From: a virus
Reading direction: 5' to 3' (one strand)
DNA: 24,301 bases
Virus genome (UHGV): UHGV-1420800
Below, in pieces: positions 5,537 to 24,301 of the stretch (position 1 is its first letter; every line of letters starts with the position of its first letter). The notes under the pieces were generated by a model. The model was not told the DNA's origin. It saw only the letters and a list, made by a program, of their open reading frames with translations, and searched no databases. Position numbers and translations under genes: made by a program.

Positions 5537-5915
5537 GCACAACAGGTAAGAGCATTGAACCCGCAGACCTCGCGGAATTGGTGAAAGGTGCCGCGCAGTA
5601 CTCTTATCGTTGTGGTGAATACGCAGGCTGATGCGTTAATCAGGTGAACGAGACACCCGCCGGTCCGTGATATGGCACACCGTGCCGGTCATATCTGCCG
5701 CGGTTAGGTTTACGAGGATTTCGTAAAGCTGGTCTAGGGTGAAGCCGTGAAAGCGGAGGAAGTAAAACGAGGCGTCGGTACACGCCTATCGTCATTAAGT
5801 CGGAGTTCAGCACCGACCGCCACAACCCAACCTGAGCCGTAGCCACTGGCTATCCTGAATTCATCAGTGATAGTTATGCTGCGGCCTTCTACACATGACC
5901 TTCGTGAAAGCGGGT

Positions 5916-20753: not shown

Positions 20754-23147
20754 ATGGCTAATTACCGTGATTTGTTAGAGCAGGCTGGCGCACGTTACGG
20801 TGTGCCAGAAGGGTTGATGACTGCACTGGGTGCCAAGGAGTCTTCTTACAACCCTGCCGCAGTAAGCTCCGCCGGGGCTGTAGGATTGACTCAGGTCATG
20901 CCTGGGACATGGCGTGATATGGGTTATACCGATGAGCAAATGCAAAACCCCGAATATCAGGCTGACGCTGGCGCGCGCTATCTGGCAAAGATGTACCAGC
21001 AGTTTGGTAACTGGCGTGACGCTCTTCAGGCTTATCACGACGGTCCCGGCAACGTTATGAAGGCAAAGCGTGGTGAATATACGCCAGGGCCTGAAGGCCG
21101 CGGTTACGTTGATGATCGCTTTGCTCAATGGGCGGGTGACCCGGTGACAGACTCAACAGTAGAACAGCGCGCCACCTCTGCAAAGGTACATCCTCAGCAA
21201 GACCCTAACAACCCGTTTGCACAACTGGAAGCACAGTCATCCGAACAAGTATCGGCATCAGGCGTGCAGTCAGACCCAAATAATCCATTTGCTCAGATTG
21301 AGCAGCAGGCAGCCAGTCAGCAGCCACCTCAACCCGTAAGTTCTGTCGCACCGAAACCTGTTCAGCAGCAAGGCGGAATAATGTCTGACCTTGGTAATGG
21401 ACTTGCTGAAACCGGGCGCGGCTTACTACAGGCAGGAATCAACGTAGCGAACATACCTGCTGAACTCACTGATGCTGTAACAAGCGCGGCGGCTTGGGCT
21501 GGCGGTAAACTCGGCATTGGCGATGGTACATATCAACCAGCACCACGAGTAACAACGCAGGGATTAGAGCAGGACTTTGGCCTTCAGCAAGGCGCGCTGA
21601 CTCCACAAACGACAGAGGGAAGGGTATTTGCTGAAGCATTGCCTTACCTCACTCCTGCTGGCGTTGAGAGAGCGGCAGCACAGGCACCAACACTTGCTGG
21701 TCGAATTGCTCAGGGGGCAACTCGCCTTCTCGCAGAAAACGCAGTTGGATCACTTGCTGCAAACAGTGCGAAAGATGATGCGGAAGCACTCGCCACCGAT
21801 TTAGGCGTTGGTGTGCTGGCTGGCGGTGCTATTAACGCTGCCGGACGTGGATTAGGTGCTGCTTATCGTGGTGTTCGTGGTTCGATAGCACCAGAAGCGC
21901 AACAGGCTATCAGATTTGCAGAACGTGAAGGAGTTCCTCTGCACACCACAGACCTGTTACAACCCATTTCCCGCGTCGGAAAAATGGCGCAGACGACAGC
22001 GGAAAATATCCCCCTGGCTGGCACAAGCGGAATGAGAGCAACGCAACAGGAAGCGAGAAGCCAGTTGGTGCAGAGATTTGCTGATAAATTCGGTGAGTAT
22101 GATCCAGCTGTTGTTATTGACAGCCTTAAAGCGAAAACATCAGGAATTCGTCGTGCTGCAGGGAACCGTCTTGAGCAGGTTCAGAATGCTATGGCGGGAA
22201 TAAACATTCAGCCTGCAAGAGCAATTCAGCAGATTGATACAGAAATATCTAACCTGCAGAAGCTTGGTAAGGTTGCTGATAACGAGACTATTTCAAAACT
22301 TCAGTCCTATCGTGATGAGCTTGTTCGCAATGCTGGTCCTGATGGTCCGGTAAATCTGGATTTGAAGCAATTAAGCGATCTGCGCAGCCAGTTCAGAATG
22401 GACGTGAAGGGGGAGCGACCAGTGTTACCAAACCGTTCCGATGCTGCCATTCAGCGCGTTTACAAGGCAATGACCGACGATATCAATGGTGCCATTGGTC
22501 AGAATCTTGGCAACGATACTCTCCGTAAATATCAGCAGGCCAATGCCGTCTACGCTGACGAAGCGGCGAAACTAAAGAATACCAGGCTGAAGAATGTTCT
22601 CATGAAAGGCGACCTGACGCCGGAAGTTGTCAACAACATGCTATTCAGCAAGAACAAATCGGAAATTAAGACGCTGTATAACTCAGTTGGTCGTGTTGGC
22701 AGGGCGCAAATGCGCAATGGCATCATTGGAAAGGCGATGGAGAAATCAGGTGGTTCCCCTGACCAGTTCCTTCGACAGCTTAACATCCTGCAAAACCAGA
22801 CTGGCATCACATTTAAAGGTCAGGAAGCCGCTTATCTGAAAGGATTGAAAAACTACCTGCAATCCACGCAGCAGGCTGCAAAAGCGGCAGTAACAACACC
22901 AACAGGGCAGCAAACCATCCCGTTCATTATCGGATATGGGACAGCAATGAACCCTGCGACAACTGGCGCAGCGGTAAGCTACGGACTTCTTACTCGCGCC
23001 TATGAGAGCGAGCCATTCAGAAATGCAATGCTCCGAATGGCAAACACCCCACGCGGATCAACAGCGTTCGAGAAAGCCATGCAGCAGGCACAAAAGGCCA
23101 TTAACGCCCTGACTCAGGGGGCTAAGTCTGATGCGCTGTCAGAATAG
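20754..23147 (+). CDS. Ejection protein in the gp16 position, carrying an N-terminal soluble lytic transglycosylase (SLT) domain
   Basis: 797 aa. The N-terminal ~125 aa carry SLT family motifs (KESSYNP with catalytic Glu29, GLTQVMPGTW, AYHDGPG). The remainder is Ala/Gly/Gln-rich like E-proteins. It is syntenic with P22 gene 16. Confidence 0.8.
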   Translation: MANYRDLLEQAGARYGVPEGLMTALGAKESSYNPAAVSSAGAVGLTQVMPGTWRDMGYTDEQMQNPEYQADAGARYLAKMYQQFGNWRDALQAYHDGPGNVMKAKRGEYTPGPEGRGYVDDRFAQWAGDPVTDSTVEQRATSAKVHPQQDPNNPFAQLEAQSSEQVSASGVQSDPNNPFAQIEQQAASQQPPQPVSSVAPKPVQQQGGIMSDLGNGLAETGRGLLQAGINVANIPAELTDAVTSAAAWAGGKLGIGDGTYQPAPRVTTQGLEQDFGLQQGALTPQTTEGRVFAEALPYLTPAGVERAAAQAPTLAGRIAQGATRLLAENAVGSLAANSAKDDAEALATDLGVGVLAGGAINAAGRGLGAAYRGVRGSIAPEAQQAIRFAEREGVPLHTTDLLQPISRVGKMAQTTAENIPLAGTSGMRATQQEARSQLVQRFADKFGEYDPAVVIDSLKAKTSGIRRAAGNRLEQVQNAMAGINIQPARAIQQIDTEISNLQKLGKVADNETISKLQSYRDELVRNAGPDGPVNLDLKQLSDLRSQFRMDVKGERPVLPNRSDAAIQRVYKAMTDDINGAIGQNLGNDTLRKYQQANAVYADEAAKLKNTRLKNVLMKGDLTPEVVNNMLFSKNKSEIKTLYNSVGRVGRAQMRNGIIGKAMEKSGGSPDQFLRQLNILQNQTGITFKGQEAAYLKGLKNYLQSTQQAAKAAVTTPTGQQTIPFIIGYGTAMNPATTGAAVSYGLLTRAYESEPFRNAMLRMANTPRGSTAFEKAMQQAQKAINALTQGAKSDALSE

Positions 23148-23236
23148 CTTCGCAAACACCATGAACGTGCAAAAACCAAATATGTAGAACGCAATATTCA
23201 GCATATCTCTGTGCATAAATCCTCCGTAACGGATGG

Positions 23237-23530
23237 TTATCTGCTGTCTTTTTTATATAGCTTCTTGAGCGTATCAAAGACAATTTTCTTAACCATATCA
23301 GATTGTTGTTCTGCCATACGCTCTGCATCGTCAATGTAAACTGATGCAGAGCTTTGTTTATCCAATGATTCCTCAATCGCTGCAATTATCTCTGAGTTCA
23401 GCGACCTGTTATTCATCTTCGCACGCTGCTTAATTTTCGAGTGGAGTTCATGCGGAAGTCTCAAGTGAAACTGCGCCTCGTCGTATTTGCTGTACATCCT
23501 TGATGCCTCACCAGTTGGGTGGAATGGCAT
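23237..23530 (-). CDS. mnt: Mnt-like ribbon-helix-helix repressor (Arc/MetJ superfamily)
   Basis: RHH strand and helices (QFHLRLPHELHSKIKQRAKMNNRSLNSEIIAAIEESL) and a C-terminal tetramerisation helix (DAERMAEQQSDMVKKIVFDTLKKLYKK) parallel P22 Mnt. The internal ATG at 23497 (GAGG 8 nt upstream) would give a P22-sized 86-aa product and may be the true start. Confidence 0.85.
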   Translation of the reverse strand: MPFHPTGEASRMYSKYDEAQFHLRLPHELHSKIKQRAKMNNRSLNSEIIAAIEESLDKQSSASVYIDDAERMAEQQSDMVKKIVFDTLKKLYKKDSR

Positions 23531-23618
23531 CGTAACCTACTGGATAAATACTCAATAGTACCATTTCGGTATGCAATCACATCATGGTTGCATCATATCA
23601 TTCGTCTGGAGCAATGAA

Positions 23619-24276
23619 ATGTCAGATATCACCGCAAATGTTGTGGTAAGCATGCCTTCGCAACTCTTCACTATGGCTCGTTCTTTTAAAGCCGTAGCCA
23701 ATGGCAAAATTTATATCGGTAAAATTGACACTGACCCGGTAAACCCTGAAAACCAGATTCAGGTTTATGTGGAGAACGAAGATGGTTCTCACGTTCCTGT
23801 TTCGCAACCAATCATCATTAACGCTGCTGGATATCCGGTATATAACGGACAGATTGCCAAGTTCGTAACTGTGCAAGGCCATTCTATGGCTGTTTATGAT
23901 GCGTACGGTGTGCAGCAGTTCTATTTTCCGAATGTGCTGAAGTACGACCCTGATCAATTTCGAAGTGAGCTGTCTGAAGAAGATGGTGCAACTAAAATTG
24001 GATACTTGGCCGGTACAGTAGCGGATAGTTTGTCATATTGGGCAACGCCAGAGCAATATGGAGCAATTGGAGATGGTGTAGCTGATGATACAGTGGCGGT
24101 GACTAATGCTATTATGACTGGAAGATGCCTCATGAAGAGAGGTTCCACATATCGTATGGTGATGAATGAGGAAAATGTCATCACTCCCCCAGCTGGTGCA
24201 TATATTGATTTTAACGGTGCTAGAATAACTCATGAGAAAACTGGGTACCTTGTTTTTCTTAACAAAAACCAAGACG
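23619..24276 (+). CDS. 9: Tailspike protein, 5' partial (P22 gp9-type head-binding domain followed by a different receptor-binding domain); truncated by the contig end
   Basis: From ATG 23619 (GGAG 7 nt upstream): [59 protein letters not shown]...YDPDQ, the conserved N-terminal domain. It is followed by ...[25 protein letters not shown], a pectate-lyase-superfamily-type start. It is open to the adapter and absent from the ORF track because it has no stop. Confidence 0.9.
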
Positions 24277-24301
24277 CTGTCTCTTATACACATCTCCGAG
24301 C
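24277..24301. other. Illumina Nextera adapter (reverse complement: CTGTCTCTTATACACATCT + CCGAGC...); non-biological
   Basis: Exact Tn5 mosaic-end reverse complement followed by the start of CCGAGCCCACGAGAC. Confidence 0.93.

Follow-up and report, generated by a model that had tools for sequence, protein, structure and literature searches.

What does a Mnt repressor regulate in a phage that lacks the arc and ant genes which accompany mnt in P22? The question is raised by a viral sequence of 24,301 nucleotides (UHGV-1420800; the whole stretch analysed is called the window here), in which a mnt-like gene lies within positions 23148-23618, on the opposite strand to the tailspike gene next to it. 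We examined the gene, its relatives, the intergenic DNA and the selection acting on them, and weighed the targets that such a repressor might have.

The mnt-like gene and its product

The window covers the right-hand part of a P22-like (Lederbergvirus) genome. Nin and lysis genes come first, then those for terminase, portal, coat and ejection proteins, and last the tailspike, of which only the first 219 codons are included at the right end. Positions 24277-24301 read CTGTCTCTTATACACATCTCCGAGC, which we take to be the Nextera/Tn5 mosaic-end adapter, so that the contig stops there, and the tailspike gene is cut short, through a library artefact and not for a biological reason. The mnt-like gene occupies 23237-23497 on the minus strand (86 codons and a stop codon). 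It is convergent with its left neighbour, a gp16-like ejection gene with an SLT domain (20754-23147), across a gap of 89 bp, and divergent from the tailspike gene, whose Shine-Dalgarno sequence GGAG (23608-23611) and start codon (23619-23621) lie on the plus strand and whose product matches Pfam Head_binding at 1.5e-67. A minus-strand ORF at 5640-5846 is not homologous to gp56, the minus-strand gene of phage Sf101, and the first-pass annotation's remark that mnt is the only minus-strand gene is not contradicted.

The product matched the Pfam families Arc (PF03869, 7.8e-15) and Repressor_Mnt (PF11423, 8.7e-15), the profile of the latter being covered over its full length. Among PDB entries, the N-terminal domain of Mnt (1mnt, 9e-19) aligned with residues 17-89 of the longer, 97-aa form of the protein, and the tetramerisation domain of Mnt (1qey) matched at 6e-08. 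These matches bear out the earlier identification of a true Mnt homologue with both domains of the family, the N-terminal ribbon-helix-helix (RHH) DNA-binding domain at residues ~7-50 and the C-terminal tetramerisation helix at residues ~57-83. Tetramer formation and sequence-specific DNA binding are traits of the Mnt family that are expected of the window protein by homology, and the 86-aa protein would form a tetramer of two RHH dimers. PADLOC gave no match to a defence system.

The 97-aa form corresponds to the longest ORF (23237-23530, minus strand), and the divergent gap to the tailspike start is 88 or 121 bp depending on whether mnt starts there or at 23497. The first-pass annotation had left this choice in doubt. 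Several lines of sequence evidence favour 23497 and an 86-aa protein, and we treat the question as settled on them. The alignment with P22 Mnt begins at this start, with two extra residues in the window protein. A Shine-Dalgarno sequence, GAGG (23506-23509, minus strand), lies 8 nt ahead of the ATG at 23497 within a conserved block, GTGAGGCATC, that is common to the window-, JEP4- and ST160-type genes. An N-terminal extension is impossible in ST160, where the upstream ATG lies in another frame that meets a stop codon. PGAP annotates the 86-aa form in the closest prophage, that of E. coli 90-9281. The few variants within 23498-23530 would all change an amino acid in the frame of the extension (T to I, F or L).

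Relatives of the cassette

DNA matching the 471-bp interval was found in 371 of 5426 complete E. coli genomes (~7%). Among phages, the window allele (95-99% amino acid identity) is carried by Sf101 as gp14, by IME10, where it is unannotated, and by ECO26.1. The Sf101 and IME10 genes have the 121-bp spacer and the operator in common with the window. The Sf101 gene differs in being annotated with the long 97-aa start and in the names 'partition protein ATPase' or 'chromosome segregation ATPase'. The first of these labels comes from PHROG 795 and 2685 and stands also on P22 mnt in RefSeq (NC_002371); it is wrong for an RHH repressor of 83-86 aa.

The first-pass annotation had presented the arrangement as an anomaly. 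This was overstated, as mnt beside the tailspike gene is common and has been published (PMC2629481; 10.1101/2020.10.05.325894). Mnt-only 'ant morons', with mnt and one ORF only, were described in ST64T, ST104 and Para1 (Villafane et al. 2008, PMC2629481), and a mnt-like gene beside the tailspike without arc or ant was reported in phage L in 2020, with 'another function or remnant' posed for it (10.1101/2020.10.05.325894). In our phage collection, mnt is directly divergent from the tailspike gene in ST160, SE1, Gally, VSe13, JEP4 and the Proteus phage Brookers. Among the loci sampled, mnt beside the tailspike is the rule and not the exception.

An 'ant moron' is known as a variable, separately transcribed insert between the homologues of gene 16 and gene 9, and the window has an insert of this kind, with mosaic boundaries at ~23237 and ~23633. 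Like the window, the Mnt-only ant morons of ST64T, ST104, Para1, phage L, SE1 and ST160 have mnt divergent from the tailspike and no arc or ant. They differ in their recognition class (Q-N-R with GACCAC, see below) and usually have one extra ORF, whereas the window cassette is a bare minimum of ~380 bp and of another specificity class. A second set of relatives, the Mnt of JEP4, E. coli HS and VSe13 type, resembles the window in its DNA-binding domain (84-87% identical), in a TACC-N5-GGTA dyad and in its adjacency to the tailspike. In contrast to the window, these relatives have a C-terminal helix that is 34% identical, a 135-bp spacer with a CCGTAGCC hairpin, and antirepressor genes behind mnt that are under other repressors. 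Behind the tailspike-adjacent mnt of JEP4/HS-type loci lies a second immI-like unit (L101 4635-6974; also L106, L108, L109, L111-L114 and others), in which the genes for a 106-aa RHH protein and a 62-aa Arc-like protein diverge; next come a Bro-N/P22AR_C antirepressor, a KilA-like gene and a 73-aa ORF. The spacer between the 106-aa and 62-aa genes holds the perfect palindrome TTGGTTCTAGAACCAA.

Absence of arc, ant and sieA

The window Mnt has the RHH domain and tetramerisation helix of P22 Mnt and lies leftward in the same slot, between genes 16 and 9, with a dyad operator equally far from the start codon and with the same CTCAATAG flank. Identity between the two proteins, however, is 49%, the recognition strand is Q-H-R as against H-N-R in P22, and the operator core of P22, GTCCAC-G-GTGGAC, is replaced by TACC-N5-GGTA. 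Unlike P22 immI, the window has no arc, ant, sar, sieA or recognisable P_ant. Queried by tblastn with Arc, Ant and SieA of P22 and with antirepressors of the Rha, KilA and P22AR types, the 24.3-kb window gave no match besides mnt, in agreement with the first-pass annotation, which had found arc, ant and sieA missing. The sole window match of the P22 Arc query was mnt itself, and the gene divergent from mnt is the tailspike.

A simple rearrangement that placed arc and ant just beyond the tailspike, an outcome that the first-pass annotation had allowed for, was seen neither in Sf101 nor in the prophage of E. coli 90-9281. Behind the tailspike lie oac and int in Sf101, and gtr genes, int and tRNA-Arg in the prophage, where the flank past the tailspike contained no antirepressor gene. 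The Sf101 annotation lists no arc, ant, sieA, kilA or P22AR, and a Rha-like regulator is found elsewhere in that genome. A promoter scan of 23000-23800 called no plus-strand promoter, and the window positions that align with the P_ant hexamers of P22, TTGACA and TATATT, do not keep these sequences. The characteristic traits of P22 immI, namely arc, an antirepressor and a strong P_ant overlapped by O_mnt, were thus all absent from the window. Because arc, ant, sar, sieA and a recognisable P_ant are missing, the known job of P22 Mnt, the shut-off of the antirepressor, has no target in the window.

A predicted operator and three recognition classes

Then, where does the window Mnt bind? The first-pass annotation had proposed two inverted repeats of the divergent region as operators, ATGCAA-N11-TTGCAT (23571-23593) and CCAGTTGG-N17-CCTACTGG (23511-23543). 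Both repeats are located where they had been described, but the operator role did not hold. When the 121-bp spacer was shuffled, 8-nt arms with at most one mismatch arose 0.9 times per shuffle, and a 9-nt arm pair with at most one mismatch in 16% of shuffles; neither repeat is above chance in the shuffled spacer. The JEP4, VSe13 and HS spacers are without both repeats even though the DNA-binding domain is so similar, and they keep the TACC-N5-GGTA dyad. The ATGCAA/TTGCAT repeat does overlap a weak leftward promoter-like pair, TTGCAT-N17-GAGTAT, which had been suggested as a minus-strand promoter; this pair agrees with the consensus at 6 of 12 positions and was not called in the promoter scan. 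The same repeat is also a hairpin whose position before the tailspike is conserved even in Sf6, which has no mnt. Binding of Mnt to either repeat, or to both, is in our judgement hardly credible.

The cognate Mnt site is most likely a 17-bp dyad, AGTACCATTTCGGTATG, at 23557-23573 (core TACC-N5-GGTA at 23559-23571, dyad centre 23565), which the first-pass annotation had overlooked and which is predicted from its position and from covariation. It lies ~68 bp upstream of the mnt start codon and aligns, in position and in its CTCAATAG left flank, with the annotated O_mnt of P22 (AGGTCCACGGTGGACCT; the positions of O_mnt, P_mnt and P_ant were taken from the BK000583 annotation). The half-site spacing of ~9 bp is the same as in P22. 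With the spacers oriented alike, every Mnt type has a CAAT(A/C) flank and then a dyad at an equal distance from the start.

Comparison of operators and recognition strands across ~170 loci distinguished three classes. P22 and epsilon34 have the strand H-N-R and the operator AGGTCCACGGTGGACCT, with the core GTCCAC-G-GTGGAC. ST160, Gally and their relatives have Q-N-R and the operator AAGACCACnGTGGTCTT, of the GACCAC class. The window, JEP4, VSe13 and HS have Q-H-R and the operator (A/C)(G/A)TACC(A/G)TTT(C/T/A)GGTA(T/C), in shorter form GTACCrTTTyGGTAT. Over these three Mnt classes, the operator dyad covaries with the outward-facing residues of the beta-strand. After the work of Sauer and Susskind, we take these strand positions to be the ones that contact bases, that is, Arg2, His6, Asn8 and Arg10 in Mnt and Gln9, Asn11 and Arg13 in Arc; the Mnt contact residues are said to go back to work by Knight and Sauer in 1989 and by Youderian and colleagues in 1983.

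TACC-N5-GGTA was found 60-79 bp upstream of the ATG in 157 window- and JEP4-type loci, with two or three single-base operator variants among the sequences tabulated. The dyad is present as a single copy in the window (0.12 expected by chance) and in the 38.7-kb Sf101 genome. Its core is short (4+4 bases) and by itself arises in 12% of shuffled 24-kb windows. The assignment of the operator rests on position and comparison. A dyad operator upstream of its own gene and beside the -35 of P_mnt is a trait of the family, recognised in the window by position and covariation only.

A weak candidate for the P_mnt homologue lies at 23529-23555 on the minus strand, with TTGAGT (23555-23550), a 15-nt spacer and TACGAT (23534-23529). 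It aligns with TTGAGA-17-TATCAT of P22, TTGTGG-17-TATGAT of ST160 and TTGTTG-17-TACGAT of JEP4. The spacer of the window type is 2 bp shorter than those of its relatives, a poor 15 nt, and a consensus promoter scan called no leftward promoter at this position. As with O_mnt in P22, the predicted operator lies directly against the -35 of the P_mnt homologue.

Selection and mosaic structure

The first-pass annotation had offered an immI remnant as one explanation of the lone gene. A functionless, neutrally decaying remnant of a deleted immI region would fit the missing arc, ant and sar as well as the defective 15-nt spacer of the P_mnt homologue, and the phage L paper raises the same possibility for its own mnt-like gene (10.1101/2020.10.05.325894). 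The pattern of variation argues against it. The 63 distinct haplotypes that have the 121-bp spacer show 31 synonymous versus 28 non-synonymous segregating changes in the mnt coding region, a pN/pS of 0.21, and the ORF is exactly 86 aa in 86 of the 90 loci. The operator core is kept, apart from the two or three single-base variants, and the 121-bp spacer is almost invariant between flanks that are mosaic left of ~23237 and right of ~23633. In its pure form the remnant explanation is disfavoured by the low pN/pS, the intact ORFs and the retained operator, and we leave it a very small chance.

Relative to Sf6, whose homology ends near 23222, the cassette is an insertion of ~380 bp. A possible weak terminator hairpin on the minus strand (23218-23238; -7.9 kcal/mol, z -1.4, not significant) overlaps the mnt stop codon and coincides with the left mosaic boundary of the mnt module. 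The window Mnt is itself a recombinant. Residues 1-45 are 87% identical to JEP4, whereas residues 56-86 are 67-73% identical to P22, epsilon34 and ST160 and 34% identical to JEP4, so that a JEP4/HS-type DNA-binding half is joined to a P22/ST160-type tetramerisation helix, with the junction in the linker at about residues 46-55. The DNA-binding domain and the operator-bearing spacer travel together, as would be expected of a working pair.

Another kind of mosaicism was noted at the right-hand boundary. In ~10 relatives (L012, L014, L020, L028, L033, L034, L035, L044, L069 and L077) the tailspike ORF ends after its first 15 nt (ATGTCAGATATCACC), which corresponds to window position 23634, and is followed by a reverse-oriented HNH_3+AP2 endonuclease gene and then by a new tailspike start. 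At least three sequence types of the inserted endonuclease gene were seen, and the first five codons of the tailspike act as a mosaic boundary.

A probable self-contained repressor-operator unit

With arc, ant, sar, sieA and a recognisable P_ant missing, and with no further copy of the dyad elsewhere in the phage, the cassette can be regarded as a self-contained repressor-operator unit. Our preferred explanation, to which we assign a probability of roughly 0.7, is that a functional 86-aa Mnt repressor and its own dyad AGTACCATTTCGGTATG make up this unit, a minimal 'ant moron' whose only evident target in cis is its own control region. The account is based on homology, the presence of both domains, the integrity of the gene, purifying selection, and the position and covariation of the operator. 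Mnt would bind the dyad beside the -35 of the P_mnt homologue and would autoregulate through its own control region, which lies directly before the tailspike leader. The gene would presumably be expressed from the prophage, and hence in lysogens. Counting against this explanation are the poor spacer of the P_mnt homologue and the lack of a leftward promoter call there. Self-regulation alone gives no obvious reason for purifying selection, and a role in trans or one related to the tailspike is probably missing from the account.

A stem-loop in the tailspike leader

What, then, is the repeat at 23571-23593? On the plus strand it is a stem-loop of the tailspike mRNA leader, AUGCAAUCA-CAUCA-UGGUUGCAU, recognised by its folding, its position in relatives and its polymorphisms, and it ends 14 nt ahead of the tailspike Shine-Dalgarno sequence. 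The predicted fold of the plus strand has -9.4 kcal/mol (z -3.1), as against -6.6 kcal/mol (z -1.6) for the minus strand, and the polymorphisms G23587A and C23574T retain pairing only in plus-strand RNA. Unrelated hairpins lie 13-17 nt before a GGAG Shine-Dalgarno sequence in P22, epsilon34, JEP4, ST160, Brookers, several metagenomic types and the mnt-less Sf6. Because pairing is kept in the plus strand and a hairpin is found also in mnt-less Sf6, the repeat belongs to the tailspike leader and not to Mnt. The stem-loop is not an intrinsic terminator, since it has no U run and was not called in the terminator scan.

Stem-loops upstream of the tailspike Shine-Dalgarno sequence are thus present in many P22-like phages and have unrelated sequences (AUGCAAUCA..., CCGUAGC... 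and CCGGACA...), at 23571-23593 in the window, ~2360-2385 in Sf6 and ~1075-1095 in P22 (positions in the locus extracts for the latter two). Hairpins of the CCGYAGC family have a paired helix in 97% of the cells; covariation is weak, with one double change and the rest wobble. The CCGTAGCC...GCTGCGG hairpin of JEP4 and ST160 type was considered as the ant terminator of P22 and rejected by folding and by the P22 sequence: t_ant of P22 is a different, canonical terminator further upstream, and the CCGTAGCC hairpin is a distinct conserved element that immediately precedes gene 9. The positional conservation of a hairpin suggests a conserved RNA-level role in tailspike expression, for example in stability, processing or pausing.

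Possible targets beyond mnt

Control of the tailspike had been proposed in the first-pass annotation. The predicted operator at 23557-23573 lies 54 bp ahead of the tailspike ATG, and Mnt bound there could limit the transcription that enters the tailspike gene: it might repress a rightward promoter, or it might stop late or upstream transcripts from reading through. Such a role would fit the position of mnt directly upstream of the tailspike in nearly all ST160-type and window/JEP4-type loci, an adjacency that holds even with a separate mnt2-arc2-antirepressor operon behind, and Villafane et al. (PMC2629481) have put forward, as a speculation, that late read-through into gene 9 is modulated by the ant moron and its repressors. 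The version that works through a promoter found no support, however, as no sigma-70-like rightward promoter was called in the spacer, which does not preserve the P22 hexamers of P_ant. In the ~10 relatives with an HNH gene, more than 600 bp lie between the operator and the working tailspike start, and Sf6 and many other phages express the tailspike without mnt. We consider this role unlikely.

P22 Mnt acts in trans on superinfecting P22. By analogy, the orphan Mnt might repress the antirepressor promoter of superinfecting or co-resident phages that share its operator, as also proposed earlier for Ant-encoding phages; this would give a function to a gene that is under purifying selection in a phage without ant to control, and that is widespread in E. 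coli prophages. The target of such immunity was not found, however. In ~160 loci with this DNA-binding domain, the dyad lies only ever beside mnt itself, and in none of them does the operator have arc or ant behind it. We also looked, without success, for another copy of the dyad at the antirepressor promoter in phages of the JEP4/HS type; their ant promoter has its own RHH pair and the different palindrome TTGGTTCTAGAACCAA, and there too the tailspike-adjacent Mnt does not border it. In P22 and epsilon34, the operator bases that covary with the altered residues are not those of the window dyad. A scan of viral contigs for foreign targets with the pattern GTACCNTTTNGGTATG gave at least 80 loci without mnt, with no arc, ant or antirepressor among the matches listed; those listed look like chance matches in unrelated contigs. 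Immunity in trans is in our view distinctly improbable.

Two further sets of sites were noted in these scans. A JEP4-type 18-nt operator match, GTACCGTTTCGGTATGTA (L181 7579 and 8094; also L188, L225, L241 and L277), occurs in unrelated contigs as two copies 515 bp apart, each ~25 bp upstream of consecutive small leftward genes. By a rough estimate that assumes the size of the collection, these repeats are within chance expectation. A perfect palindrome with the architecture of the predicted Mnt operator, TACCA-TAT-TGGTA, lies inside one allele of gene 16 in 17 JEP4-type loci, 3.6-4.4 kb downstream of mnt (for example L093, L095, L102 and L119), and also in L160 and L169. The gene 16 allele of the window does not have it. 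The palindrome may be a coincidence or a second Mnt site.

The tailspike-adjacent mnt occurs in at least two specificity classes, with or without a separate mnt2-arc2-antirepressor operon. It is conceivable, if doubtful, that tailspike-adjacent Mnt is not chiefly a regulator of antirepressors but an independent repressor-operator module that accompanies the 5' end of the tailspike gene, with the mnt-arc-ant order of P22 as the derived exception, and that it gates the junction of the late operon and the tailspike or acts on another resident element.

Discussion

The cassette is not a new kind of system, and its arrangement is already in the literature. What is modestly new is a third natural specificity class of Mnt with its predicted operator, the purifying selection on an orphan repressor, and mnt next to the tailspike as the rule among the sampled loci. 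A practical point is that several RefSeq phage records wrongly call the gene 'partition protein ATPase'. For E. coli and its prophages, the cassette represents an orphan repressor under purifying selection, with no visible target, whose DNA is found in ~7% of the complete genomes. Mnt and Arc are standard textbook examples of how ribbon-helix-helix proteins recognise DNA, and the three pairs of strand and predicted operator, H-N-R with GTCCAC, Q-N-R with GACCAC and Q-H-R with TACC, would form a natural specificity series within the Mnt family.
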